From an uncultured Akkermansia sp. (GTDB lineage Bacteria; Verrucomicrobiota; Verrucomicrobiia; Verrucomicrobiales; DEV007), in assembly GCA_964562825.1 (NCBI GenBank), contig CAZLUZ010000018.1:1-24000 (forward strand): a DNA stretch of 24,000 nt, written 5' to 3'. The position numbers and the translations under genes are program-made. Under the pieces are notes generated by a model. It did no database searches, was not told where the DNA came from, and saw only the letters and a program-made list of their open reading frames with translations. Shown here in pieces: positions 1,544 to 15,741 of the stretch. Position 1 is the first letter of the stretch; every line of letters starts with the position of its first letter.

Positions 1544-3346
1544 TTATCTGTCCAGTCCATGGGCCTTGCGGATCGCATGGACCACGCCGGCGCCGAGGAA
1601 GCGATCGCCGACCCGCGGGGCGATCCTGGTCAGATCGACGATCATCAGTCCGTCGAGACAGCCGGAGAACTTGGCGTCGACGTTGAAACCGAGGTAGGTG
1701 GCGTGAAATTTGGTGTATTGGCGGAGGAGGATAGGCACGCCTTTCCCGTCCTGTTCCAGGCTGCCCACCGCCGCGTCGATCTGCTCGATGGTCTCCAGTC
1801 CCTCCGCGATTTCACCGAGGCGGTCCCGAGTCCGACTTGACGTCTCCCGATCCACCGACCGGCTCCCCGGCCGAACGAGGTGGGCGAAATCCGTGGAGAA
1901 AGCGTGTTTTTCCAGAAACTGCACCATGAGATTGCGGGAGACAGGCAGGTAGTTGCCGCTGATGCTGACCGCTCCGAAAGCGTAGCGGAAACGCGGGTTC
2001 CGGCGAAGAAACTCGCCGATTCCGAGGAAAAGCATGCCCAGCGAGAGGTAGCCTTTCTGGCATTCCTCGACCACGAAAGAGCGTCCCAACTCCACGGCGG
2101 GACCGCCCAGGCTGTGAAAAAACTCCCGCTTGTAGCGGAACAGACTGCGGGTGTAGAGGCCCTGCACGCCGCGCCGCTCCGTGATCTCGTCGGATGGCCC
2201 CAGGCGATAGGCCCCGCCGATCTGTCTCGTCTCCCCATTCCACAGGAAGAGGTGCTGGTACCATTGATCGTACTCGTCGAGGTCGATGGCCTGTCCCGTT
2301 CCCTCGCCCACACTGCGGAAGGTCTTCTCCCGCAGTCTGCCGATCTCGCGGAGCACCCGGGGAATTTCGGCGGCCCCCGCGATGAAGCACCGCCAGGCGC
2401 CGCGGGTCAACAGGAGACGATCTTCTGGCAGAGCGGCGATTTCGACCTCCAACCCGTCGGGTTCGACAGGAAGGACAAGCGGTTCGAGCTCCGCCGGGCT
2501 CAGCTTCTTTCCCTCGCGGGTGACCTGCCAGCGTTTCTCCCGCGAAGCGGTGCCGAGAAGTTCCACGTGCCGCTGAACGAACGCGGCCCCTTTTTCGTAA
2601 TCGGCACGCGGGATGCGCCGTGCCGGAATCGGTCGACCGATCTCGATCCGGATGGTCCGGCCGCTCAGCCTTCGGAATTCGCGAAGCAACTGGGCGGTGC
2701 GCAGCAGGGGATGAACCAGTCCCGCGGCATGGAAAAAGACACTGTTGCGTCCCTCGAAATGAACCGGAACCACATCGGCCCCGCTTTTCGCCACCATCTG
2801 GATGAGGTGCTTCGACCACGCCTTTTCCCTGATCCGGCGCTCGGCGAAAGAGAAATGAGCCACTTCTCCGGCGGGAAAGAGACCGATGAGTCCGCCCGAT
2901 TGGAGATGAGCCAGCGCATCGCGCAGGCCGGCGATATTCCTCCGCGCTGCGCCCGCGCCGCCGAAGGGGTCAACGGGAATGAGGATATCCCGGGCCTCCG
3001 GCATGGCGGCGATGAGGGAGTTGCCCAGGAGCCGGGCATCGGAACGCCTGCGCAGCAGGACCTCCGCAAGAATGAGCGCGTCCGCGACCCCGAAGGGATG
3101 ATTGGAGACCACGATGACCGGTCCCTTCGCGGGAATTCGGGCCAGGGCGTCCTCCGTGACCTCGTAGTGGATGCCGAGGTGCGCCAGGCTGTCGGCGAGG
3201 AAAGCTCCTCCCTCCGTGTCATGATTTTCCCGGACCTCCCGGTAGCTTTTGTTAAACCAATCGAAGGCGAGCCACCGGGCCACCGGGCGCACCAGGAAGT
3301 CGGGCATTCGGCTGCCGAGGACGGCGTTTTCGTCAATCGGATTCAT
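1544..3346 (-). CDS. OlsF-like bifunctional lipid acyltransferase: N-terminal PlsC/LPLAT-type O-acyltransferase domain plus C-terminal OlsB-like GNAT N-acyltransferase domain
   Basis: HX4D acyltransferase motif NHPFGVAD (nt 3080-3103) and a FPAGEV block. The C-terminal half has OlsB/hemolysin-like GNAT signatures (DLDEYDQWYQHLFLWN, IGGAYRLG, ELGRSFV). Start is set at ATG 3346 (MNPIDEN...), which forms an ATGA overlap with the upstream stop. The track start at 3472 would overlap the upstream gene by about 130 nt. The amino-acid substrate cannot be read from the sequence. Confidence 0.7.
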   Translation of the reverse strand: MNPIDENAVLGSRMPDFLVRPVARWLAFDWFNKSYREVRENHDTEGGAFLADSLAHLGIHYEVTEDALARIPAKGPVIVVSNHPFGVADALILAEVLLRRRSDARLLGNSLIAAMPEARDILIPVDPFGGAGAARRNIAGLRDALAHLQSGGLIGLFPAGEVAHFSFAERRIREKAWSKHLIQMVAKSGADVVPVHFEGRNSVFFHAAGLVHPLLRTAQLLREFRRLSGRTIRIEIGRPIPARRIPRADYEKGAAFVQRHVELLGTASREKRWQVTREGKKLSPAELEPLVLPVEPDGLEVEIAALPEDRLLLTRGAWRCFIAGAAEIPRVLREIGRLREKTFRSVGEGTGQAIDLDEYDQWYQHLFLWNGETRQIGGAYRLGPSDEITERRGVQGLYTRSLFRYKREFFHSLGGPAVELGRSFVVEECQKGYLSLGMLFLGIGEFLRRNPRFRYAFGAVSISGNYLPVSRNLMVQFLEKHAFSTDFAHLVRPGSRSVDRETSSRTRDRLGEIAEGLETIEQIDAAVGSLEQDGKGVPILLRQYTKFHATYLGFNVDAKFSGCLDGLMIVDLTRIAPRVGDRFLGAGVVHAIRKAHGLDR

Positions 3347-5877
3347 CGAAGAGGGGCTTCGAAGCGTTTGGCGGCCTGATAAGCCTTGATGTTGCCCCAG
3401 AGATCGAGAAAGGAGGGCTCCGGGCAGCCCCGGGCGCGATTCTTCGCCCCGATCTCGTAACAGAGTTCCCATTGCCGGCGCAGGATGGCGAGAGCCTGCG
3501 AAAAGGTGTGGTCCGGATCGTAGATCGCGGTGGCTTCCGAGGTCACCCCGTTGAGTTCCAGGATAAGGATGCCGCGACCGGCCCGGAGTTCCTCCTCAGA
3601 GGGAGCTTTCAGATCAAACCGGCCGAAGTGAAATCCGGCGAAAGAGCGCGCGATCCGGTCGATTTCCCGGGTCAGGCGGGGGGTGATCAGGTCATCTCCC
3701 GAGAGAAAAAGCGCACCGCGGGAATGCGTTCCCAGCCGACTCAGGAGCAATCTCTCTCCCTGGGCGGGAACGGTCCCCAGGTGCTGCCGGAACTGGCGAA
3801 GAAAAAAATCGGCCATGAGACGGGCCCGCGGATGGGACAGGATGAGTTCCTCGATCGTGCTCCTGCCATCTCCCACCACGGAGACCGATTTCTTTCTCGT
3901 GATGGAAAAGATGCGGCCCTCGGCGTCCTCCGGGTGCCGGTAGTAGAAGACTCCGAACTCGGGACCCTCGACATACTGCTGGGCGACGACGGGCTCGGTC
4001 GCACCGGAAACGGCGAAGTATTCCTCCACCTCGCGGTCGCTATGGACGATGGCCACGCCCTTTCCCCGTTCCCCGCAAACGGGTTTGAGCACGATCGGAT
4101 AGCGCGGGTCGGAAATACGGTGCATAAATTCTTTCACCTCCGCGGCGGACGACACCAGGGCGAACGCCGGCAGGTTGCCGCTCTCCCGCAGAGCCTCCAG
4201 GCTGATTCGTTTCGGTTCGTGGGCGAAGCCTCCGCAGGGGAGAGCCGGATTCGCCGCCGCGAACACCGTGGCCGAGCGGTGCCGCAGGGCGAGAAACACC
4301 GCGTGGGGCAGCAAGGCCAGGTAGAGAATCCAGGCGGGCCAGAACTCCCATCGGGTCCGTCGATCCCAGCGTGCGGCGAAAAGCCGTCTCTGCCGCGGGT
4401 CGGAGAGGATCGATACCCCACGCACCACGAGGAGGAGCGCCCCGACGAGACCGAGCAGACCCACGATAATGTAGTTCTCGTGGTCCTCGAACCAGGGCAG
4501 GAACACGTGTCCGAAGACGGCCGAAAGCCCCACCAGGATCGGTGTCCAGATGGCGGCGGCGAGGAGAAACCAGAAGAGGAACTTTTTCAGGCAGACCCCG
4601 GCGGCACCCATTCCCACGTAGACGGGAAGTCGCGAACCCGGGATGAAGCGGGTGGCGATGATGACCTTGGCCCCGTTGGCGTCGAGCCATCGGCGACCGG
4701 AATCGATCTTGTCCTTTGGGGCGATCCAACGCAGGGGGGCGCGTTCCAGGGCGCGCGGACCGAGCCATTTTCCGAGGAGGAAAAGAGTGATATCTCCCAG
4801 AAAGATCCCCGCGAGGCAGCCGGCCACGGCGGTGGCGAAGTGGAGAACGCCCCGGGACGTCAGCAGACCGCCCGAAATGCAGGCGAGGTCCTCGCTGGCC
4901 AAGGTCGCGATGCCGAGGAGCAACATGGTCGCCACTGCCCCGGCGGGCGATCCGTCGAGTCGCCTCAATTCCGCGGGCCTTTCCGCATCCACCACCCGCG
5001 AAAGCGTCGCTCCGCTGCGCCGGGGACCCGGTTCCCGAGCAAATCGGGCGATCGGGGCGGCAACTTCCGCGGGGCGCCGCATCAGATCGATGTGATTTCC
5101 TCCCTCGATCCAGACCAGCTGACTCTGGGGAACGATGCGGTGGTGCTCTCGTGCGGCCGATCCGGGCACGAGACGGTCGTGTTCTCCTTGGATGATCAGG
5201 GTGGGTCCGGTCCAGGTCTCGAGCAGGCTCCGCAGGGGGCGTTGATCGGTCTCGTAGAAGTTTCGCGCGTAGTTCCGGTTGAGCATCGCGCTGTCCCACC
5301 ATCCGAAATGGGGAACGCCTTCCTGGATGAGGGTGATCGCGGCGAGTTGAAGGCCGTGGATAGCGTGGTTGAGCACATAGTCGCCCAGCAGTTCGTGTTC
5401 CTGGACCCCGATGGAGGCGAGCAGGACCAGACCGGAGATCCGCTCGGGAGCCAGGTGGGCCAGATGGATGGCCACGCCTCCCCCCATGGAGTAGCCCACC
5501 GGAATCACGTTCTCCAGGTCCCTTTGTCGGAGCCATTTGGCGAGGTAATGGGCATGCGCCTCGATGGATAGATCCTCGACCCGTTGCTCCGATCGCCCGA
5601 AGCCGGGCAGATCGGGGATCAGGAGGGGAAACTCCCCTTCCAGTTGCGCGGCGAGGGGCGCGAAGATGCCCGGCATGGTCGGGCTCCCGTGAATGAGCAG
5701 CAGGGTGGGGCCTTCGGCGGCTCCCGATTCGCGAAAGGCCAGCCTGTCGCCCAGCACGGTGGTGGCTTCCTGCCCCGGTAGCGGACCCGGAGCATCCTGG
5801 ACCTGCCGGTAGACGTGGGAGAGTGCCAGCAGAATCACGTAGACGAGAAGGATCACCCTTTTCCAGCGGCCTTTCAT
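3343..5877 (-). CDS. Triple-fusion membrane protein: N-terminal TM anchor + alpha/beta hydrolase domain, central DedA/VTT (SNARE-associated) membrane domain, C-terminal ATP-grasp ligase domain (844 aa)
   Basis: Hydrolase: LLLIHGSPT, nucleophile elbow GYSMGGG (Ser codon 5488-5490), later GEHDRLVP and GGNHIDL as candidate Asp/His. DedA: LGDITLFLLGKWLG and VIIATRFIPGSRLPVYVGMGAAG with flanking hydrophobic helices. ATP-grasp: PIVLKPVCGERGKGVAIV, VVAQQYVEGPEFGVFYY, ILELNGVTSEATAIYD. Start is set at ATG 5877 (MKGRWKRVILLVYVILLAL...), in an ATGA overlap with the upstream stop. The 109-aa N-terminal extension in the track is Arg/Pro/Gly-rich and overlaps the upstream gene. Confidence 0.75.
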   Translation of the reverse strand: MKGRWKRVILLVYVILLALSHVYRQVQDAPGPLPGQEATTVLGDRLAFRESGAAEGPTLLLIHGSPTMPGIFAPLAAQLEGEFPLLIPDLPGFGRSEQRVEDLSIEAHAHYLAKWLRQRDLENVIPVGYSMGGGVAIHLAHLAPERISGLVLLASIGVQEHELLGDYVLNHAIHGLQLAAITLIQEGVPHFGWWDSAMLNRNYARNFYETDQRPLRSLLETWTGPTLIIQGEHDRLVPGSAAREHHRIVPQSQLVWIEGGNHIDLMRRPAEVAAPIARFAREPGPRRSGATLSRVVDAERPAELRRLDGSPAGAVATMLLLGIATLASEDLACISGGLLTSRGVLHFATAVAGCLAGIFLGDITLFLLGKWLGPRALERAPLRWIAPKDKIDSGRRWLDANGAKVIIATRFIPGSRLPVYVGMGAAGVCLKKFLFWFLLAAAIWTPILVGLSAVFGHVFLPWFEDHENYIIVGLLGLVGALLLVVRGVSILSDPRQRRLFAARWDRRTRWEFWPAWILYLALLPHAVFLALRHRSATVFAAANPALPCGGFAHEPKRISLEALRESGNLPAFALVSSAAEVKEFMHRISDPRYPIVLKPVCGERGKGVAIVHSDREVEEYFAVSGATEPVVAQQYVEGPEFGVFYYRHPEDAEGRIFSITRKKSVSVVGDGRSTIEELILSHPRARLMADFFLRQFRQHLGTVPAQGERLLLSRLGTHSRGALFLSGDDLITPRLTREIDRIARSFAGFHFGRFDLKAPSEEELRAGRGILILELNGVTSEATAIYDPDHTFSQALAILRRQWELCYEIGAKNRARGCPEPSFLDLWGNIKAYQAAKRFEAPLR

Positions 5878-6605
5878 GGCCTGGAGGAGGGAAAAGGAGA
5901 CTTCACCCCCAGCCGGGTCGTCGCCCCCCACGCCCAGTCCGGTGCCGTGGCGTAGGAATAGGCGGCGCGATTTCCCCGCCCGATTTTGATCCGGCTGAGG
6001 CTCACGGTATGCGCGTCCTCCCGGGACATGATGGTGGAGAAAGCGGAATGGCTGGCATCGAACCAGCGATGGAAGGACTCGCCACCACCGGTTTGGCGAT
6101 AGGCGTCGCGACGCGCGGCCGTCACCTCGGCGGTCTCGAAAGACGAAGTTGTCAGGGGTAGCTCGGCCGGGCGCCGTTGGAGCTGGCCAGCATCCCACCG
6201 CCACAGGCCGGCTGTCCGGGAGTTCAGTGCCACAAAAAGAAAGGGTCGGAACCGTCCTTTCTCCACCCTATCCGCGAGCCAATCGCCCGAGGCTTCGGGG
6301 TCCGCCAGCAAGGATGCGGCCTCCACGACGAGTCTGCCGCGGCTGGTGTAATCTCGTCCATCGGGATCGGGGAGAGGAGAACCGCTGTAGTGGTTGAGCA
6401 GGGCAAAGCAGGTTCCCGCCTCGTTCACCGCCAGCCAGGAGCCTCCGCCTTCGGGGTCAATGCAGGAGATCCAGCGGAAGTCACCATCCGGCCGTTGCTG
6501 GACGAGGGGACCGGTGGCCGCGGCACGCGACCTCGATTCGTCTCGGTTGAACCAGATGGTGAGAGTTTCCCCGGTCCGGGACCGTTGCCAGCTCATGGTG
6601 CACAT
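5874..6605 (-). CDS. NRDE family protein (TANGO2-like, Ntn-hydrolase-like fold with N-terminal Met-Cys)
   Basis: Begins MCT..., carries the eponymous motif WFNRDESRSR, then GGGSWLAVNEAGTCFALLNHY. This follows the pattern MC...NRDE..R...GG(T/S)WL......L(T/L)N of the TANGO2/NRDE family. The stop overlaps the next start (ATGA at 5874-5877). Confidence 0.85.
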   Translation of the reverse strand: MCTMSWQRSRTGETLTIWFNRDESRSRAAATGPLVQQRPDGDFRWISCIDPEGGGSWLAVNEAGTCFALLNHYSGSPLPDPDGRDYTSRGRLVVEAASLLADPEASGDWLADRVEKGRFRPFLFVALNSRTAGLWRWDAGQLQRRPAELPLTTSSFETAEVTAARRDAYRQTGGGESFHRWFDASHSAFSTIMSREDAHTVSLSRIKIGRGNRAAYSYATAPDWAWGATTRLGVKSPFPSSRP

Positions 6606-6638
6606 CGCGTTGCTCCGGGATCGTTCGGCGACCGCCGT

Positions 6639-7181
6639 TCAGGCGGACAAGGACTGCCGCTGCGCCGTTTCTCTCCGGAACTGAACCGTGGAAGGAGCGA
6701 GTCCGAACTCCTCATCGAGGACGATTCCCTCGCGCCGGCACATGATTGCGAGGATGGCGTAGTGATGCACCGCGTGGCTGAGGACGAACTGGAGTTCGCG
6801 CCCGATGGAGGAGTCCTGCCATTCGTCGGGATCATCCGAGGAAGCGTTGGACCGAACCCGGCAACGCATTCCGGGATCGATCCGGAGGCGGAGATCCTCG
6901 AGTAGTGCGATGGTTTCGTCGAAAGCTGCGATGGCGGCGACCAGCTTCGTCTCCACCACGATATCGCGTTCCCGGGCGTCGTAGTCGACGAGGTAGGGCG
7001 CCTCCATACCGGCGACAAGCCTCTGGTAGTGTTCGATGATGTGGCGGCAGTGGCCGCCGAAGGAGGCGCCGAGGAACTCGGCAGAGACGTGCGCGTACCG
7101 AGCTTGATCGATCCTCCGGAGCAGGGCCGAGGCCTGACCGAGACAGACGATGTTTGCCGCAAACAAATCGGGTCGGTTCAT
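6639..7181 (-). CDS. DinB-like (DinB_2 / four-helix-bundle metal-binding superfamily) protein
   Basis: About 180 aa with the His pattern of DinB-type bundles (GGHCRHIIEHYQ near the N-terminus, LSHAVHHYAILAIM near the C-terminus). Start is set at ATG 7181 (MNRPDLF...). It lies 33 nt upstream of the NRDE gene on the same strand. The family call is by eye only. Confidence 0.5.
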   Translation of the reverse strand: MNRPDLFAANIVCLGQASALLRRIDQARYAHVSAEFLGASFGGHCRHIIEHYQRLVAGMEAPYLVDYDARERDIVVETKLVAAIAAFDETIALLEDLRLRIDPGMRCRVRSNASSDDPDEWQDSSIGRELQFVLSHAVHHYAILAIMCRREGIVLDEEFGLAPSTVQFRRETAQRQSLSA

Positions 7182-7264: not shown

Positions 7265-8044
7265 TCAGGGCAGATCGTCGATGCGCCGGATCCCCGTTTC
7301 TGGGTCGGTGGCGACGAATAGCAGGCTGCCACATCGGCTCACCTTTCCCGTCACCTCAACCGGTTCTGCGACGAGGTCCAGAATCTGTTCGTTGATCGCC
7401 TCGCCGTTGACGCCCGTCATGATGAGCTTGGTCACGCTGCCATCCTCGCCGCGGAGCAGCAGCATGGGCGGGACACCTCCCTTGATGCAGTGGATGGCGC
7501 AGGCGCGGTGCGGTTTGAGCACCCCGGGATTCATCACGCCGAGGTAGCATTTGCTGTCCACGATCTCGCCTCTGAGGGTCTGGGACCCGAAGTCCACGAA
7601 TTCGCCCAGACTGACATCGGCGGGCCGGGTCGATTTCTGCACCGATCCGTCGATCACCTCCAGCATGGCGTTTCCCCCATCGTGGATCAGCGTGCCTCTG
7701 AGGTCCACCGCCTCCAGGTGAAAGGTCTCCGCCACCTCGGGGTCGAAGCCGTACTTCAGCGGACGCACCAGGAGGAACACCGACTGTTGGCTATCGGGTT
7801 CCGGCTCCGGGGTGAGGAGCATGGGGACCGGGTTGGCGACGAGGACCCCGGAAAATTCGCGGACGTTGCCGAACTGGAACTGTCCGATGCCGAGAGTGCT
7901 CTGAAAGAGCGGGAATACCGCCGCGAGAAGCATTGCCGCCCCGAGAATGAGGCCGGTGCGCAGCCGGAGGAAGCCGGCGATACCCGGAGGGGGCGTTTTC
8001 TCCCAACCGATGAAAAATTCGGGTGCGTTCTTTTCTGTGCTCAT
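7265..8044 (-). CDS. Hypothetical membrane-anchored protein with an extracytoplasmic domain carrying a C-x16-C-x3-C motif
   Basis: The N-terminus has RLR followed by one hydrophobic helix (GLILGAAMLLAAVFPLF). The C-terminal part contains SKCYLGVMNPGVLKPHRACAIHCIKGGVPP and a fourth Cys (VSRCGS). No family was recognised. The start ATG 8044 overlaps the stop of the Rieske/FRD gene (ATGA at 8041-8044). Codon third positions are GC-rich. Confidence 0.6.
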   Translation of the reverse strand: MSTEKNAPEFFIGWEKTPPPGIAGFLRLRTGLILGAAMLLAAVFPLFQSTLGIGQFQFGNVREFSGVLVANPVPMLLTPEPEPDSQQSVFLLVRPLKYGFDPEVAETFHLEAVDLRGTLIHDGGNAMLEVIDGSVQKSTRPADVSLGEFVDFGSQTLRGEIVDSKCYLGVMNPGVLKPHRACAIHCIKGGVPPMLLLRGEDGSVTKLIMTGVNGEAINEQILDLVAEPVEVTGKVSRCGSLLFVATDPETGIRRIDDLP

Positions 8045-9075
8045 GAGATGCTTGCCGGTTCAATGGGGGTGCCCGCCGGATGCGGGGTGGGGTGGACATA
8101 AACCGTACCATTGGCGATACGGACGTCGAAAGTGGGAATTTTTTCGGTGAAAGGTGCCGGGGACGTTCCATCCTCGGGGCGATACTGATAACCATGCCAG
8201 GGGCAGGTCAGGCATCCGTGAATGAATTTTCCCTCGGCGAGGGGGCCATTCTGGTGCTGACAGACTCCCGAGACAGCCGAGACCTTTCCCTCGTACTTCA
8301 CCACCGCCACCTTCTCCCCGCCGAGCACCACTCCGTGGGCCGCGTTTTCCGGGATGTCGGCCACCGCGCAGACTTCGACGAATCCGTCCTCGGTGGGATG
8401 ATTCGCGAGGGGACGGTCCCGGGGAAACTCGCGAAATCCGGCGGTGAGGTGGAGGCCGGCGATGGCGAGGAAGCCCGCGATGAGCAGGCCGGTGTAGAGG
8501 GGGTGCGTCTCGGACTGGAGCACCCCGAAAGCGACGTGAACGACCAGCAGCGCATAGGCCACATACACACCCATGTGCAGCGATTTCCACACCGGTGCGG
8601 TCAGGTTGGCCAGCCAGAAATCATGGCTCGTCGCCGCCATGGTGAAGAGGATGAGGAGGGCGAAAAAGCCAAAGGCCTGGAAGGGGAAGGCGCTCATGGT
8701 TGCGCCCGCATCCGTCGTGAAAATGGTCAGGATGGGGTTCGAGTCCGATCCGACGTGGTAGGTGATGACGGCAAGGGCGGAGTGAAAGAAAGCCAGGAGG
8801 AACATGGTCACCCCGAGGTGGCGCCGATTGTAGAGGATGGGCAGCCACCTGCGGTCCAGCCGAGCCAGGGGCCCCACCATGAGGATGAAGTGCAGGAGGA
8901 TGATCGCGCCCGAACCGAAGGCGCGGATCAGCATGATCTCTATGGTGGCGGAGGGACTGATCGCGAGACTGATTCCGGTGAAGAGGGCGACGTAGAGGAT
9001 GGCGGCGACAGCCAGCCAGAGATCGAAGCGCAGCTTGAAGGGATTCCATCCCACGGCTTTGTAGGAAACACTCAT
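8041..9075 (-). CDS. Ferric-reductase-like six-TM (heme b type) domain fused to a C-terminal Rieske [2Fe-2S] domain
   Basis: Six hydrophobic helices, with paired His in helices 3 and 5 (RRHLGVTMFLLAFFH; HMGVYVAYALLVVH), as in the FRD/NOX/MsrQ family. The C-terminus carries both Rieske boxes: CQHQNGPL (about 8241-8265) and CPWHGYQY (about 8190-8213). Confidence 0.8.
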   Translation of the reverse strand: MSVSYKAVGWNPFKLRFDLWLAVAAILYVALFTGISLAISPSATIEIMLIRAFGSGAIILLHFILMVGPLARLDRRWLPILYNRRHLGVTMFLLAFFHSALAVITYHVGSDSNPILTIFTTDAGATMSAFPFQAFGFFALLILFTMAATSHDFWLANLTAPVWKSLHMGVYVAYALLVVHVAFGVLQSETHPLYTGLLIAGFLAIAGLHLTAGFREFPRDRPLANHPTEDGFVEVCAVADIPENAAHGVVLGGEKVAVVKYEGKVSAVSGVCQHQNGPLAEGKFIHGCLTCPWHGYQYRPEDGTSPAPFTEKIPTFDVRIANGTVYVHPTPHPAGTPIEPASIS

Positions 9076-9215
9076 GAGGGATCTTGAAGAGGGATGGGCA
9101 GATTCTGCGTGGGAAAGCGGGGCCGGTTCAGGATCGCGTAGCCGATCGCAAAGGCGATCACGATGGTGAGCACGAACCAGAGGGTGAGGTGTCTCTTGCG
9201 GTGGTAGCGTTGCAT
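9072..9215 (-). CDS. Small single-TM protein, 47 aa (not in the supplied ORF track)
   Basis: My own translation of the minus strand gives ATG at 9215 -> MQRYHRKRHLTLWFVLTIVIAFAIGYAILNRPRFPTQNLPIPLQDPS-stop. It has a basic N-terminus and one hydrophobic helix. It starts 4 nt after the stop of the 84-aa gene, and its TGA overlaps the ATG of the Rieske/FRD gene (ATGA at 9072-9075), so it exactly fills the gap. Confidence 0.45.
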   Translation of the reverse strand: MQRYHRKRHLTLWFVLTIVIAFAIGYAILNRPRFPTQNLPIPLQDPS

Positions 9216-9219
9216 GGGA

Positions 9220-9474
9220 TCAGGGTCTGGAATTCGCGATCCGACGGTGCCGAGACTTTTCCTCAGGGGGCGTTTCCCGGCTGACCCACCGTTTCAGGAG
9301 CAGAGGCCAGAAGATCGCCGCGCCGGGAATGATGATGAGTCGGAAGCTCCAGGTGCCCGACTTCGCCGATGGATCGATGGCGCCGGCTCCACCGAAGCAG
9401 GAGAAGACGATGGCGAAAAGCAAGCCGAGGAGCAGGTAGATGCCGAGGAGGGATAGAAAGATCTCAAGTAGCAT
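9220..9474 (-). CDS. Small two-TM membrane protein, 84 aa
   Basis: MLLEIFLSLLGIYLLLGLLFAIVFSCF... and ...FRLIIIPGAAIFWPLLLKRW form two hydrophobic helices. Start is set at ATG 9474, which overlaps the malic-enzyme 3' end by 11 nt. The longer track version (start 9600) would run about 135 nt into the malic enzyme gene. Confidence 0.55.
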   Translation of the reverse strand: MLLEIFLSLLGIYLLLGLLFAIVFSCFGGAGAIDPSAKSGTWSFRLIIIPGAAIFWPLLLKRWVSRETPPEEKSRHRRIANSRP

Positions 9475-10669
9475 GGTTCGAGGGAGTTTGCCCGCCATCG
9501 CCACTGGCGGCCTGACAGACGGCTCGGGCCACGATGGGAGCGATGGTGGAATCGAGCGGGGAGGGGACAATCCGTTCCGGAGACGGTTCCGCCACCGCAT
9601 CGGCCAGCGCGCGGGCCGCGGCGATCTTCATCTCGGGCGTGATGCGCGGCGCCTGGGCGTCGAGCGCGCCCCGAAAGATTCCGGGGAAGGCGAGCACGTT
9701 GTTCACCTGATTGGGGAAATCGCTGCGTCCGGTGCCGAGCACCGCGGCACCCCCGGCCCTGGCTGCTTCGGGCATGATTTCGGGGATCGGGTTGGCCATC
9801 GCCAGGATGATGGAATCCGGGGCCATCCGGCGGATATCTTCGGTGCGGAGGATGTCGCCTACGCTGACTCCGACGAAGACGTCAGCTTCGTGAAGCACCT
9901 CCGAAAGACTGCCTTTGCGGTTTGATGGGTTGGTGTACCCGAGGAGGTCGCGCTTCCGGGGGTTCAGGTCTTCCCGGTCGCGGTGGATGGCGCCCCGGCT
10001 GTCGCAGATGATCACGTCCGCCACGGGTGTGCAGGTGTCCGCAGACTGGTCGATGCATCGGAGCAGTTTCGCGATGGCGGTTCCGGCCGCGCCTGCTCCG
10101 TTGATGACCACCCTCAGATTTTCCACGGGTTTGCCCACGACCCGAGCCGCGTTGAGCATGGCGGCGAGGAGCACAATAGCGGTGCCGTGCTGGTCGTCGT
10201 GGAAGACCGGGATGCCCAGATCCTGGAGTCTCTCCTCCACCTCGAAGCACCGGGGTGCCGAGATATCCTCCAGGTTGATTCCGCCGAACACCGGCGCGAT
10301 CCGGCGAACCGTATCCACGACCTCATCGGCGTCCTGGGTGTCGAGGCAGATGGGAAAAGCGTCGATGTTGGCGTATTGCTTGAAAAGCAGGGCCTTCCCC
10401 TCCATCACCGGAATAGCCGCGTAAGGTCCGATGTTGCCCAGGCCGAGAACGGCCGAACCGTCACTGACCACGGCGACGGCATTTCGCTTGATCGTCAGAT
10501 CGCGCACCTTTTCGGGATGTCTCGCGATCTCCTCACAGGGCCTCGCCACCCCAGGGGTGTAGGCGATGGAGAGATCGTCGATGGTTTCGACGGGAAGTTT
10601 CGGAGTCACCGAGATTTTGCCTCGGAGCTGTTCGTGAATGAGCAGGGAGCGTTCGCCAAAATCCATCAT
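9464..10669 (-). CDS. NAD(P)-dependent malic enzyme (short prokaryotic form, oxaloacetate-decarboxylating malate dehydrogenase)
   Basis: Family-typical blocks run throughout: LSIAYTPGVARPC, VVSDGSAVLGLGNIGPYAAIPVMEGKALLFK, FGGINLEDISAPRCFEVE, VFHDDQHGTAIV, INGAGAAGTAI, LAMANPIPEI, NNVLAFPGIFRGALD. Confidence 0.93.
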   Translation of the reverse strand: MMDFGERSLLIHEQLRGKISVTPKLPVETIDDLSIAYTPGVARPCEEIARHPEKVRDLTIKRNAVAVVSDGSAVLGLGNIGPYAAIPVMEGKALLFKQYANIDAFPICLDTQDADEVVDTVRRIAPVFGGINLEDISAPRCFEVEERLQDLGIPVFHDDQHGTAIVLLAAMLNAARVVGKPVENLRVVINGAGAAGTAIAKLLRCIDQSADTCTPVADVIICDSRGAIHRDREDLNPRKRDLLGYTNPSNRKGSLSEVLHEADVFVGVSVGDILRTEDIRRMAPDSIILAMANPIPEIMPEAARAGGAAVLGTGRSDFPNQVNNVLAFPGIFRGALDAQAPRITPEMKIAAARALADAVAEPSPERIVPSPLDSTIAPIVARAVCQAASGDGGQTPSNHAT

Positions 10670-10684
10670 CTACAGAGTGCAAGG

Positions 10685-12664
10685 TTACACGAGGAGAGCA
10701 TCTGTCATCACCTCGATGGTGGCGGGGCCGGGATAGTCCCGGCAGACGGCGAGCGCCTCATCCAGCTGCTGGCGTTCCGAGACTCGAATCCCTTTACCGC
10801 CGCAGAGATTCACGTAGTCCGCAAAGTTCGGATTGTGCAGCCCGGTCTTCCAGACCTCGAAGTGTCCCGCCCGCTGTTCTTTCGAAATTTTGCCCAATTC
10901 ACCGTTGTGCATGAGGATGTGGGTAATGTTCATCCCGTATTTCACCGCGGTGAGGACTTCCATCATGTATTGGGCGAACCCGCCATCCCCGGTCACCGCC
11001 CAGACGGGTCGTCCGGCATAAGCGGGATCGTCCTCCTGGGTGGCGGCCCACGCGCCCATCGCCGCCGGGTATCCGAACCCGATCGATCCCAGGTAACCGG
11101 ACATGAGGACCGCCTGCCGGTCGCTGCTCTCGAAGTAGCGCCCGAAGGAGTAAGTGTTGTTGCCCACGTCGACGGCGATGATGGCATCCTCCTGGCACTG
11201 ACGGGTCATCGCGTCGAACAGGGCGGCGGCACTGATCCCTTTACCGGAGTCGTCGGGGATGCGGCTGGCCTTTTCCTTTCTCCAGATTTCCCAGCGACGG
11301 GCTACCTCCTCGCGTATCCCGGGACGCGGCACCGCGTTGGGAAAACGTTGCCCGAGGATGTCCAGGGTCCGGCCGATCTCCCCGAGAACGGGCAGATCGA
11401 CGGAGTGGAACTTGCCCAGTTGCATGGGATCGAAATCGATCTGAATCGTCGGCATGTAGCTGGCGATGCCGGTGTGGTTGGAAAAGGATGCGCCGATGGC
11501 GATGATGAGGTCGCACTCATTCATGAACCAGCTGGCGATCGGTGTCCCCGACCGTCCCAGAACGCCACAACCCAGCGGATGCGAATCCGAGATCAGGCCT
11601 TTTCCCTTGAAGGTGGTGAGCACAGGAATTTCGAGTCTTTCGGCGAACCGGATGATGGACTCCATGTGAAATCGTGCTCCGTGCCCTACGATGATGATGG
11701 GCCGTTGCGCCTCTCGGATGCGGTTTTCCGCCGCGGCTATGCTGGCCTCCGACGGGGCCACCGAGAGGTCGGCGAGGCGTCCGTCGGGGTGGCCGGGCTT
11801 GCCCTCCGTATTCTCGATTTCCTGAACCTCATTGGGGAGCACGAGGGTCACCGGGTTCCGGGTGAGGAGCGCGTTCTTGAGAGCCAGCGACATCAGTTCG
11901 CCGTGGCGGGAATCCGCGTAGACGGTGTGGTTGAAGGCCGAGACATCCTCGAAAGCGTTGGCCAGGTCGATCTCCTGGAAAGCCCCCGGTCCGAGCACCT
12001 GGGTGTCGATCTGTCCCGACAGCGCGAGGAGTGGCGCCCGATCCACTTTCGCGTCGTAAAGGCCGGTCATCAGGTTGGTTGCTCCGGGGCCCGCGATGGA
12101 GAAACAGGCGGCCGGTCTGCCGGTCAGTTTGGCGTAGGCGGAGCAGGCAAAGGATGCGGCTCCCTCGTGCCGGATGCCGTAAAACCGAAGGTTGCCCTGC
12201 TCCTCCTGGACCCGCAGCGCATCGGCCATGCCCAGGTTGGAGTGGCCCACCATGCCGAAGACCTGCCTGACCCCCCAATTCACCATGGTCTCGGCGAGGA
12301 CATCCGAGTTGGTCCGAGCCCTCTCGGGTTCCGGTTCCAGACCGACATAGATGCCGTCCTCCCGCTCCTCGACAGGATAGGTGATGAGACGGTCGTCGTG
12401 CCCGCCGGGCGACTGACCGGTGAGAGGATCAAAATCCCAACCGTGCCAGGGACAACGCAGCCAGCAACGACCCTCCGCCCCATCCTCGATCGAACCCTCG
12501 CCGAGCGGACCACCCTGGTGGGGGCAGGCGTTATCGAGCGCGCCGTACCGGCCCTGGTATTTGGAAAGGGCTATGGTGCGGGTGCCCGCGGAGATGGTGG
12601 TCACCCGTCTCTCCTCCAATCCGGGAGGGTCGAGGACTTTGTGCCAGACGAGTGCTTCGCTCAT
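10685..12664 (-). CDS. Rieske [2Fe-2S] domain fused to a thiamine-pyrophosphate enzyme of the pyruvate oxidase / acetolactate synthase superfamily
   Basis: N-terminal Rieske boxes CPHQGGPL (about 12504-12536) and CPWHGWDF (about 12431-12470). A three-domain TPP enzyme follows: Pyr domain VFGMVGHSNLGMADAL...IRHEGAASFACSAYAKLTG...GPGATNL, a middle domain IIIVGHGARF...TTFKGKG, and PP domain GSIGFGYPAAMGA...VTGDGGFAQYMMEVLTAVKYGMNITHILMHNGELGKI. The substrate is not deducible by eye. Confidence 0.85.
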   Translation of the reverse strand: MSEALVWHKVLDPPGLEERRVTTISAGTRTIALSKYQGRYGALDNACPHQGGPLGEGSIEDGAEGRCWLRCPWHGWDFDPLTGQSPGGHDDRLITYPVEEREDGIYVGLEPEPERARTNSDVLAETMVNWGVRQVFGMVGHSNLGMADALRVQEEQGNLRFYGIRHEGAASFACSAYAKLTGRPAACFSIAGPGATNLMTGLYDAKVDRAPLLALSGQIDTQVLGPGAFQEIDLANAFEDVSAFNHTVYADSRHGELMSLALKNALLTRNPVTLVLPNEVQEIENTEGKPGHPDGRLADLSVAPSEASIAAAENRIREAQRPIIIVGHGARFHMESIIRFAERLEIPVLTTFKGKGLISDSHPLGCGVLGRSGTPIASWFMNECDLIIAIGASFSNHTGIASYMPTIQIDFDPMQLGKFHSVDLPVLGEIGRTLDILGQRFPNAVPRPGIREEVARRWEIWRKEKASRIPDDSGKGISAAALFDAMTRQCQEDAIIAVDVGNNTYSFGRYFESSDRQAVLMSGYLGSIGFGYPAAMGAWAATQEDDPAYAGRPVWAVTGDGGFAQYMMEVLTAVKYGMNITHILMHNGELGKISKEQRAGHFEVWKTGLHNPNFADYVNLCGGKGIRVSERQQLDEALAVCRDYPGPATIEVMTDALLV

Positions 12665-14978: not shown

Positions 14979-15075
14979 AAGGACAGGGAACGGGGTTGAG
15001 GCCTTGTCTCCTCGGGGTATGGAGAAACTGGAGCGAGGATTCGGGTTTCTTGATTTGCTAGTTGGATTTTTGACC

Positions 15076-15741
15076 ATGGCCACCGATTCCAATACTTCGG
15101 ATCGCGAGCGCTTCGCCGAGACGCGCAAGAGTCTGATCGAGAAACTGGCCAATTGGGAGGATCAGCAGAGCTGGGAGGAGTTCTACCGCACCTATTGGCG
15201 GTTGATCTATGGAGTTTCCCTGAAGGCGGGGCTGGGACAGGACGAGGCCCTCGAAGTGGTCCAGGAAACGATTCTCTCGGTAGCTCGACAATGGAAGGAG
15301 GGATCCCCCTACGACCCGGACAAGGGTTCTTTCAAAACCTGGTTGCTCAACATCACCCGTTGGCGGATCGCCGACCAGTTCCGCAGGCGACAGCGCGATC
15401 CCGCCGCTCGGTCCCAGTCGGGCAACCGCCGCGATGCCGATGGAGGCACGCGTCGCACCGCCACGGTGGAGGGCCTCGAGGACGAGTCGGGGACCGACGT
15501 GCTGGAACGGCTCTGGGAGAGGGAGTGGAAGGAAAATATCGCCCGACTGGCGATCGAATCGGTGAAAAAGAGGATTTCCCCGAAGCAATTCCAGATCTTC
15601 GACGCCTACGTGATCAAGGGCTGGGAGGCCGATCGTGTCAGCCACGAACTGGGTGTCAGCATCGCCCAGGTCTATCTGGCCAAGCACCGCGTGGGCTCCG
15701 AGGTGCGAAAAGAGGCGGAAAAACTGCGGGGCAAACTCTGA
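15076..15741 (+). CDS. ECF-type sigma-70 family RNA polymerase sigma factor
   Basis: Region 2-like EEFYRTYWRLIYGVSLKAGLGQDEALEVVQETILSV and WLLNITRWRIADQFRRRQR. Region 4 HTH: FDAYVIKGWEADRVSHELGVSIAQVYLAKHRV. Start is set at ATG 15076 (MATDSN...). The track start 15004 adds 24 uninformative residues. Confidence 0.8.
   Translation: MATDSNTSDRERFAETRKSLIEKLANWEDQQSWEEFYRTYWRLIYGVSLKAGLGQDEALEVVQETILSVARQWKEGSPYDPDKGSFKTWLLNITRWRIADQFRRRQRDPAARSQSGNRRDADGGTRRTATVEGLEDESGTDVLERLWEREWKENIARLAIESVKKRISPKQFQIFDAYVIKGWEADRVSHELGVSIAQVYLAKHRVGSEVRKEAEKLRGKL

Follow-up and report, generated by a model that had tools for sequence, protein, structure and literature searches.

In a 24,000-nucleotide stretch of DNA from an uncultured Akkermansia sp. 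(GenBank assembly GCA_964562825.1, contig CAZLUZ010000018.1, positions 1 to 24,000 of the forward strand; hereafter the window), a run of four minus-strand genes joins an OlsF-like aminolipid synthase to a fused membrane protein, here named TRI, in which an α/β-hydrolase domain, a DedA/VTT domain and an ATP-grasp domain follow an N-terminal hydrophobic helix. TRI and a shorter DedA+ATP-grasp form of it are genomically coupled to genes for aminolipid synthases (OlsB/OlsA or OlsF), a DinB-like protein and a TANGO2-like protein. We judge the chances to be about even that the four genes of the window represent, in local form, an undescribed module that is widespread in bacteria, serves acyloxyacyl amino-acid lipids in an accessory role and works by the mechanism proposed below. 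The synthase is of a known kind (OlsF-like); the putative accessory ligase, flippase and hydrolase associated with it are conserved and undescribed.

The first of the four genes (6639..7181) encodes a DinB_2-like protein of 180 amino acids, predicted to be a four-helix-bundle metalloprotein; the second (5874..6605) encodes a TANGO2/NRDE-family protein of 243 amino acids with an N-terminal Met-Cys and an NRDE motif; the third (3343..5877) encodes TRI, of 844 amino acids; and the fourth (1544..3346) encodes the OlsF-like bifunctional aminolipid synthase, of 600 amino acids. A gap of 33 nucleotides (6606-6638) lies between the DinB-like gene and the NRDE gene, and direct reading of the sequence places ATGA stop/start overlaps between the NRDE gene and TRI (5874..5877) and between TRI and the OlsF-like gene (3343..3346), so that the co-directional arrangement described in a first-pass annotation of the window is reproduced to the nucleotide. 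Homologues begin where the chosen start codons would have them begin, as judged from alignments A1 and A3 and from homologue lengths. Co-transcription and translational coupling of the four genes are a reasonable inference from this layout; a scan for consensus promoters and terminators gave a result at chance level. Overlaps of four nucleotides are ordinary in operons and therefore carry little weight alone; the evidence beyond chance is synteny across phyla.

Genomic linkage of TRI to aminolipid synthases

Homologues of TRI comprise more than 1391 proteins of about 860 amino acids, with relatives in at least 590 species genomes, and carry no annotation beyond "alpha/beta fold hydrolase" or DedA/esterase hybrid. 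Eighty loci were fetched in which identity to TRI is only 38-48%, and their neighbouring genes were clustered, with conservation-weighted choice of open reading frames (ORFs) and hidden Markov models built from the clusters being used for genes in GC-rich loci. The loci span at least nine phyla, including Verrucomicrobiota, Acidobacteriota, Gemmatimonadota, Planctomycetota, Bacteroidota/Rhodothermia, KSB1, Calditrichota, Desulfobacteraceae and Myxococcota. Sequence reaches at least 5 kb upstream and 3 kb downstream in 52 loci, and in these we counted the neighbours, defined as genes within 6 kb of TRI. An OlsB-like gene is a neighbour in 38 of the 52 (73%), a DinB-like gene, usually directly upstream of TRI, in 33 (63%), an OlsA-like gene in 31 (60%), a TANGO2 gene in 23 (44%) and a gene for an MsrQ-like/Rieske fusion in 18 (35%). 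For a gene that occurs about once per genome, co-localization within 6 kb by chance would be expected in well under 1% of loci. The strand of TRI is shared by 53 of the 54 OlsB-like neighbours when all 81 loci are considered.

The recurrent gene order is (small membrane protein, MsrQ-like/Rieske fusion, 259-residue protein), OlsB, OlsA, DinB, (TANGO2), TRI, (DoxX-like). A fused OlsF-like gene lies directly downstream of TRI, replacing the upstream OlsB and OlsA genes, in the window, in two other verrucomicrobial loci (L003/L025), in two loci of Desulfobacteraceae (L007/L011) and in the relatives P0002-P0004. The overlap of four nucleotides between TRI and the OlsF-like gene is kept in P0002, P0003 and P0004, which are the closest relatives examined (52-61% identity). 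The usual partner of TRI is a separate upstream OlsB/OlsA pair, and the downstream fused OlsF of the window is a lineage-specific substitution.

A profile of the ATP-grasp domain recovers 3952 representative clusters with E values up to 1e-3, or 1526 if the limit is set at 1e-30, among which three forms can be distinguished: full TRI proteins of about 850 amino acids; proteins of about 520-610 amino acids consisting of DedA and ATP-grasp domains, which are abundant, especially in Acidobacteriota; and proteins of about 330-430 amino acids consisting only of an Arg-rich segment with a hydrophobic helix and an ATP-grasp domain, some of which may be truncated gene calls. The DedA+ATP-grasp form retains the neighbours of TRI, as in the orders DoxX-YHS-DinB-TANGO2-(DedA-ATP-grasp)-OlsB-OlsA (L085) and OlsB-OlsA-(178-residue protein)-TANGO2-(DedA-ATP-grasp) (L092). 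In a third such locus (L088), OlsB and DedA-ATP-grasp genes are followed by a separate α/β-hydrolase gene, a DoxX/cytochrome c fusion and a COX1-like gene; this separate hydrolase is 32% identical to the TRI hydrolase domain over 103 amino acids, a generic α/β-hydrolase similarity, and it may be a split orthologue of that domain. DinB, TANGO2 and DedA-ATP-grasp thus form the part that varies least; an aminolipid synthase adjoins it in most cases, and the hydrolase is fused, possibly split off, or absent. The first-pass annotation had made its reading depend on conserved linkage between the triple fusion and aminolipid synthase genes, and such linkage extends over at least nine phyla and three architectural variants.

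Proteins of the shortest form with 370 amino acids, P0172 (L086:8001-9119 and L087:3844-4962) and P0156, have the Arg-rich segment and the hydrophobic helix without DedA, which shows that helix and ATP-grasp domain are the minimal conserved unit. P0172 is the only protein of this length whose context was read, and aminolipid genes are absent from its vicinity. A search with the ATP-grasp-only form for proteobacterial relatives (e.g. in Gluconobacter) returned only DedA-fused forms, the named matches being from Acidobacteriota.

Domains of the four proteins

All four domain assignments of the first-pass annotation (DinB-like, NRDE, hydrolase-DedA-ATP-grasp and OlsF-like) were borne out by Pfam and NCBIfam, with the DinB-like protein scoring just under the Pfam cutoff and the ATP-grasp domain supported by structure. 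The AlphaFold2 model of TRI has a predicted local distance difference test score (pLDDT) of 87.8. The α/β-hydrolase domain (residues ~35-285, 5023..5775, minus strand as for all features of the four genes) matches Abhydrolase_1 with 90 bits, and S130 (in GYSMGG), D234 and H262, presumed to be its catalytic triad, are invariant in the 22 sequences of alignment A1. The top Foldseek matches are esterases and lipases, and the profile match to the membrane phospholipase A1 PlaF (6i8w) has an E value of 1e-23 and begins at query residue 11. The α/β-fold ornithine lipid O-acyltransferase OlsI was considered and rejected (NCBIfam NF052614, 26.6 bits against a cutoff of 385). The DedA/VTT domain (residues ~305-495, 4393..4965) scores 52.1 bits against VTT_dom (cutoff 33.9); E329, D330, R410 and R416 are invariant in the same 22 sequences, and the loops at residues 378-412 and 493-514 are rich in Lys and Arg and are predicted to face the cytoplasm. 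Assignment of TRI to the UptA equivalog was likewise rejected (NCBIfam, 47.6 bits against a cutoff of 250). The usual topology of DedA proteins is even-span with both termini inside, and this topology together with positive-inside counts suggests that the hydrolase domain is cytoplasmic. The alignment with PlaF, whose catalytic domain is periplasmic (PMC9132575), runs from the transmembrane helix onward and suggests a periplasmic location.

An Arg-rich linker and a hydrophobic helix (residues 493-532, nucleotides 4282-4401) lead into the ATP-grasp domain (residues 535-844, 3346..4275). Every Pfam ATP-grasp model falls below its threshold with TRI: RimK 17.6 bits (cutoff 21), GSH-S_ATP 16 (23) and ATP-grasp_3 16.6 (23.2). 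The full-length model returned only α/β-hydrolases in Foldseek, and the ATP-grasp domain was therefore modelled alone (pLDDT 89.6, predicted template modelling score 0.87). Its best Foldseek matches are to the G domain of cyanophycin synthetase 1 (7wae/7wac; E ~9e-12, template modelling score 0.57-0.60), followed by CphA2, GshF, Ddl and LysX (E 9e-12 to 1e-7 across the set), and sequence and profile searches with the domain found the same proteins. K598, E774 and N776 are invariant in alignment A1; as is usual for the fold, we take K598 to be the ATP-binding lysine and E774 and N776 to form the magnesium-binding E-x-N motif. Comparison of the model with known structures confirms the predicted ATP-grasp fold of the C-terminal domain, and its nearest structural neighbours, judged from the model, are ligases in whose reaction a C-terminal carboxylate is phosphorylated and then linked to an amino group. 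A conserved Lys/Arg-rich segment and a hydrophobic helix always precede the domain in the family, and fusion to DedA is usual; this tethering would place the active site at the cytoplasmic membrane surface. Predicted catalytic residues are conserved in all three domains of TRI.

The OlsF-like protein consists of an N-terminal O-acyltransferase domain (nucleotides 2615-3304, residues 15-244; Acyltransf_2, PF19576, 59.1 bits, cutoff 27) and a C-terminal OlsB-like N-acyltransferase domain (nucleotides 1595-2422; Acetyltransf_5, PF13444, 71.6 bits, cutoff 22.4), and its gene is thereby predicted to encode both of the acyltransferase domains needed for an aminolipid of the ornithine lipid type. It matches the NCBIfam OlsF model (NF052615) with 375 bits and an E value of 6e-112 over model positions 43-569 of 570; this score does not reach the equivalog cutoff of 620 bits, and the protein is therefore filed as OlsF-like rather than as OlsF. 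GlsB (120 bits, residues 309-579) and GlsA (98 bits) are also matched. The first-pass annotation had named membership of the C-terminal GNAT domain among non-lipid acetyltransferases as an outcome that would speak against its reading; the matches to Acetyltransf_5 and to NCBIfam OlsF, GlsB and OlsB place the domain in the OlsB/OlsF family of lipid N-acyltransferases instead.

The DinB-like protein scores 23.8 bits against DinB_2 (PF12867; cutoff 24.8). Among its orthologues, that of L084 exceeds the cutoff (24.9 bits) and those of L085 and L081 match weakly, and the sole PDB profile match of the window protein is to the DinB-like structure 3dka (E 0.011). In an alignment of the window protein with nine orthologues from other loci (alignment A3), the invariant residues are H47, H136 and H140 together with R46, Y67, R70, R72, E129 and H139; the first three probably correspond to the His triad with which proteins of the DinB fold bind metal, and metal binding is predicted from the family. 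The TANGO2/NRDE protein scores 39 bits against TANGO2 (PF05742; cutoff 22.6), starts with MCTMSW and contains FNRDES; a PDB search with it returned nothing informative. NRDE is present in 12 of 12 TANGO2 homologues from other loci and a Met-Cys start in at least 10 of the 12, and one further homologue has the motif M-C-S-V-T-W inside an ORF that is extended upstream. Human TANGO2 binds acyl-CoA via its NRDE pocket, and acyltransferase activity was not detected (PMC11867700).

Redox genes and other neighbours

Upstream of the four genes and co-directional with them lies a module of three genes (7265-9600, minus strand) that encode a small membrane protein of 126 amino acids (9220-9600), the true start of which is probably internal; an MsrQ-like ferric-reductase transmembrane domain fused to a Rieske [2Fe-2S] domain (8041-9075; Pfam and NCBIfam); and a protein of 259 amino acids (7265-8044) that has no family match and contains a CAIHC motif. 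The last two genes share an ATGA overlap at 8041-8044. All three are found within 6 kb of TRI in 17-18 of the 52 loci, usually upstream of OlsB, in Acidobacteriota, Gemmatimonadota, Rhodothermia, Myxococcota and Verrucomicrobiota. The module is probably associated with the four-gene unit, which may extend to include it; as part of one system, it could for instance supply the DinB-like protein with electrons.

Other recurrent neighbours are a DoxX_2-like membrane protein of 135 amino acids (16 loci), an M48-peptidase-like protein (8 loci) and a YHS-domain protein; loci with neighbours of the DoxX, YHS or M48 type include L006, L008, L017, L030, L039, L050, L066, L085, L088 and L092, and L088 has the DoxX-cytochrome c fusion followed by the COX1-like protein beside its cluster. 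The recurrence of membrane redox genes hints at an oxidative step. A gene for an extracytoplasmic-function (ECF) sigma factor, for a zf-HC2/DUF3379 anti-sigma factor, or for both adjoins the cluster in L081, L085, L086/L087 and L092, which suggests regulation by envelope stress in those lineages. In the window, the nearest ECF-type sigma gene (15004-15741) lies on the opposite, plus strand at a distance of about 6 kb and is probably unrelated. Genes for a GMC oxidoreductase, a double glyoxalase-fold protein, an MGH1-like/GDE glycoside hydrolase and an MIP channel lie, wholly or in part, beside the cluster in L081, L086, L091 and L092, and may be a neighbouring osmolyte or stress island. On one short contig (L090:2380-3711), the TANGO2-(DedA-ATP-grasp) pair is directly followed by a gene of the Mur ligase family with three domains. 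It may encode another ATP-dependent amide ligase of the system, comparable to the M domain of cyanophycin synthetase, or else a housekeeping Mur ligase.

Farther upstream in the window, a gene on the minus strand (10685-12664) encodes a Rieske [2Fe-2S] domain fused N-terminally to a pyruvate-oxidase-like thiamine-diphosphate enzyme, an unusual fusion that scores 380 bits against NCBIfam PRK08611 (cutoff 742), and a malic enzyme gene (9464-10669) lies directly downstream of it. On the other side of the four genes, downstream of the OlsF-like gene, the product of a convergent plus-strand gene (89-1435) is the C-terminal portion of an AddB/RecB-like protein, in which a UvrD-type helicase is combined with a PD-(D/E)XK nuclease domain; the gene has no relation to the four-gene unit and ends the co-directional run.

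Proposed function and comparison with known systems

In the mechanism that we favour, the synthase would work at the cytoplasmic membrane face and produce an N-(acyloxyacyl) amino acid, leaving free an α-carboxylate that would chemically resemble a peptide C-terminus. The membrane-tethered ATP-grasp domain would activate this carboxylate as an acyl-phosphate and ligate an amine or amino acid to it, giving a dipeptide-type or amidated head group; the DedA domain would move the product or a precursor between leaflets; the PlaF-like serine hydrolase would deacylate or transacylate the lipid; and the acyl-binding TANGO2-like protein and the DinB-like metalloprotein would perform further steps of handling or modification. 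Head-group extension by the ATP-grasp domain, flipping by DedA and remodelling by the hydrolase make a plausible sequence. The argument for the extension step is a single one, namely that the nearest structural relatives of the domain are peptide-bond ligases acting on C-terminal carboxylates.

Several observations weigh against this mechanism. The nearest ATP-grasp relatives act on soluble peptides and are only about 20% identical, so the class of substrate cannot be read from them, nor can the amino acid used be read from scores as far below the equivalog cutoffs as those of the OlsF-like protein (375 against 620 bits) and of the OlsB-like partners (about 128 against 320-350). The cues for the membrane side of the hydrolase domain conflict, homology to PlaF being set against the positive-inside counts. 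The Rieske/cytochrome b, DoxX, cytochrome c and YHS neighbours are left unexplained. An OlsB-like gene is absent within 6 kb of TRI in 14 of the 52 full-flank loci, about half of which keep DinB, TANGO2 or both beside TRI; L091 and L090 have TANGO2 and no synthase in the flank that was read (only 4.9 kb for L090); and the ATP-grasp-only form of L086/L087 has no synthase nearby. No experiment or lipidome ties any carrier of the module to a dipeptide or amidated aminolipid. Ser-Gly lipids are made by gut Bacteroides and cerilipin by Acetobacteraceae, and the family did not turn up in either group, no search having been directed at them.

ATP-grasp chemistry can accept any carboxylate, and the module might instead feed or remodel the acyl chains of the aminolipid in a manner analogous to the Lands cycle, with the PlaF-like hydrolase freeing a fatty acid from a membrane lipid, the ATP-grasp domain re-activating it as an acyl-phosphate or ligating it directly to an amine, the TANGO2-like protein carrying the chain and the head group remaining unchanged. 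PlaF itself is a phospholipase A1 that remodels phospholipid acyl chains, TANGO2 binds acyl chains as well as acyl-CoA (PMC11867700), and the conserved cluster includes an OlsA-like O-acyltransferase; however, the large DedA+ATP-grasp subfamily without a hydrolase keeps the same neighbours, the ATP-grasp relatives are amino-acid and peptide ligases rather than fatty-acid kinases, and OlsB and OlsA use acyl-ACP, which makes an extra acyl activation needless. We therefore regard acyl remodelling as rather unlikely. The combination of ligase, flippase and hydrolase mirrors MprF with its neighbouring aminoacyl-phosphatidylglycerol hydrolase, and TRI could correspondingly perform tRNA-independent aminoacylation of another lipid such as phosphatidylglycerol or a glycolipid, which its ATP-grasp domain would esterify or amidate with an amino acid, DedA would flip and the hydrolase would restore by removing the amino acid, its link to OlsB and OlsA reflecting co-regulated remodelling of membrane charge. 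Formation of an ester by an ATP-grasp enzyme is possible, D-Ala-D-lactate ligase and PsnB being among the fold matches, and some clusters are flanked by ECF sigma and anti-sigma genes. Against such a role, which seems to us unlikely, stand the tight coupling by stop/start overlap, specific to two different types of aminolipid synthase, and the rarity with which co-regulation alone would keep such coupling over nine phyla.

The closest folds are those of soluble amino-acid and peptide ligases, and the low scores of the OlsB-like and OlsF-like proteins would allow an unusual acceptor, so that the ATP-grasp domain might supply a precursor, making a soluble dipeptide or unusual amino acid derivative that OlsB or OlsF then acylates. 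A soluble product would make the permanent tether to DedA or to the conserved hydrophobic helix needless, and in Bacteroides the glycine lipid is the reported precursor of the Ser-Gly lipid, acylation coming first (PMC12971839; PMC12746155); precursor supply is accordingly a distinctly unlikely explanation. Turnover or salvage of the aminolipid, in which the hydrolase, a Cys-Ntn-like TANGO2 protein and the DinB-like protein degrade it and the ATP-grasp domain recycles a fragment, would account for two putative hydrolytic activities (the serine hydrolase and the N-terminal Cys of the NRDE-family protein). It is improbable in our estimation, as catabolic genes are not usually translationally coupled to a biosynthetic synthase in one unit, a pathway of degradation would hardly be expected to include a ligase that consumes ATP, and the reported property of human TANGO2 is acyl-CoA binding rather than a detectable acyltransferase activity (PMC11867700). 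That the genes are mere neighbours with no functional connection, as the loci without a synthase nearby might suggest, is barely credible when the 73% co-localization is set against the chance expectation and nearly every pair lies on the same strand, and when the link survives changes of gene order, the exchange of OlsB/OlsA for OlsF and the loss of the fused hydrolase.

Compared with known systems, the closest to the fourth gene is OlsF, the ornithine/lysine lipid synthase of Serratia proteamaculans (Spro_2569) and Flavobacterium johnsoniae (Fjoh_0833), with which the window protein shares the layout of PF19576 followed by PF13444. It differs from OlsF in scoring below the equivalog cutoff, which makes it a homologue with candidate specificity only, and in the overlap of its start with the end of the TRI gene upstream; the reviews PMC11631085 and PMC12971839 mention no partner of this kind for OlsF. 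In most other phyla, the genes that precede TRI resemble the two-gene OlsB/OlsA pathway for ornithine lipid, but these partners score about 128 bits (OlsB-like) and 131 bits (OlsA-like) in NCBIfam against cutoffs of 300-350, and they sit in a larger cluster with DinB, TANGO2 and TRI. The N-terminal hydrophobic helix and α/β-hydrolase of TRI are arranged as in PlaF of Pseudomonas aeruginosa (6i8w; 24% identity in Foldseek); PlaF stands alone, whereas the TRI hydrolase continues into DedA and ATP-grasp domains.

The ATP-grasp domain shares its predicted fold and its putative ATP- and magnesium-binding residues with the cyanophycin synthetase G domain (CphA1 and CphA2), GshF, Ddl, LysX and RimK. 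It differs from CphA1 in lacking the N domain and the Mur-ligase-like M domain, in its identity of about 20% and in its fusion to a membrane domain. Membership of TRI in the cyanophycin synthetases was rejected (NCBIfam, 44.4 and 40.9 bits against cutoffs of 877 and 850), only a G-like domain being present. MprF and its neighbouring aminoacyl-phosphatidylglycerol hydrolase are a functional analogy only: MprF uses aminoacyl-tRNA and a different flippase fold, the neighbouring hydrolase reverses the aminoacylation of the head group, and TRI would be an all-in-one analogue built from unrelated folds. Membership in the MprF family was also rejected, as the families that Pfam matches to TRI at E ≤ 0.01 are all of the α/β-hydrolase, VTT or ATP-grasp type.

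Many environmental bacteria have aminolipids in place of phospholipids, and in host-associated bacteria aminolipids act as immune ligands. A further-reaching proposal, which we advance tentatively and with some doubt, is that the DedA-ATP-grasp core, whether or not a lipase is fused to it, would be the first lipid head-group ligase of the ATP-grasp type and would translocate its product through its own DedA domain; Acidobacteriota, Gemmatimonadota, Verrucomicrobiota, Planctomycetota and further phyla would owe dipeptide or amidated aminolipids to it, and it would offer an enzyme class for the orphan taurine-ornithine and Ser-Gly extensions. If this were true, a DedA domain would gain a defined lipid substrate and bacterial homologues of TANGO2, a human disease gene of debated function, would gain a biochemical setting. 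The OlsF-like gene alone and the OlsF-like gene together with TRI are ready-made controls for testing the module.

The first-pass annotation knew of no described system with this gene set, and our literature searches (OlsF, aminolipid or DedA with ATP-grasp; ornithine lipid with DedA; the OlsH/OlsI paper) likewise found no description of one. The ATP-dependent amidation of the ornithine lipid carboxylate with taurine, which yields cerilipin, is known biochemically and its gene is not (PMC12971839, a 2026 review), and the serine-ligating gene of the Ser-Gly lipids "remains to be identified" (PMC12746155, December 2025), a search for it with Pfam ATP-grasp and other ligase domains having been without success (PMC12746155). 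Both the transfer of taurine in cerilipin and the ligation of serine (in flavolipin, lipid 654 and doreamides) create an amide at the carboxylate of an aminolipid head group or adjacent to it, as is proposed for TRI. They differ in that no TRI homologue has been shown in Gluconobacter or Bacteroides and dipeptide aminolipids have not been reported from the phyla that carry TRI, which makes the link a hypothesis. The ATP-grasp domain of TRI, being below every Pfam ATP-grasp cutoff, would escape a search of that kind; TRI is a concrete candidate for the class of enzyme that extends or amidates aminolipid head groups, one that Pfam searches miss.

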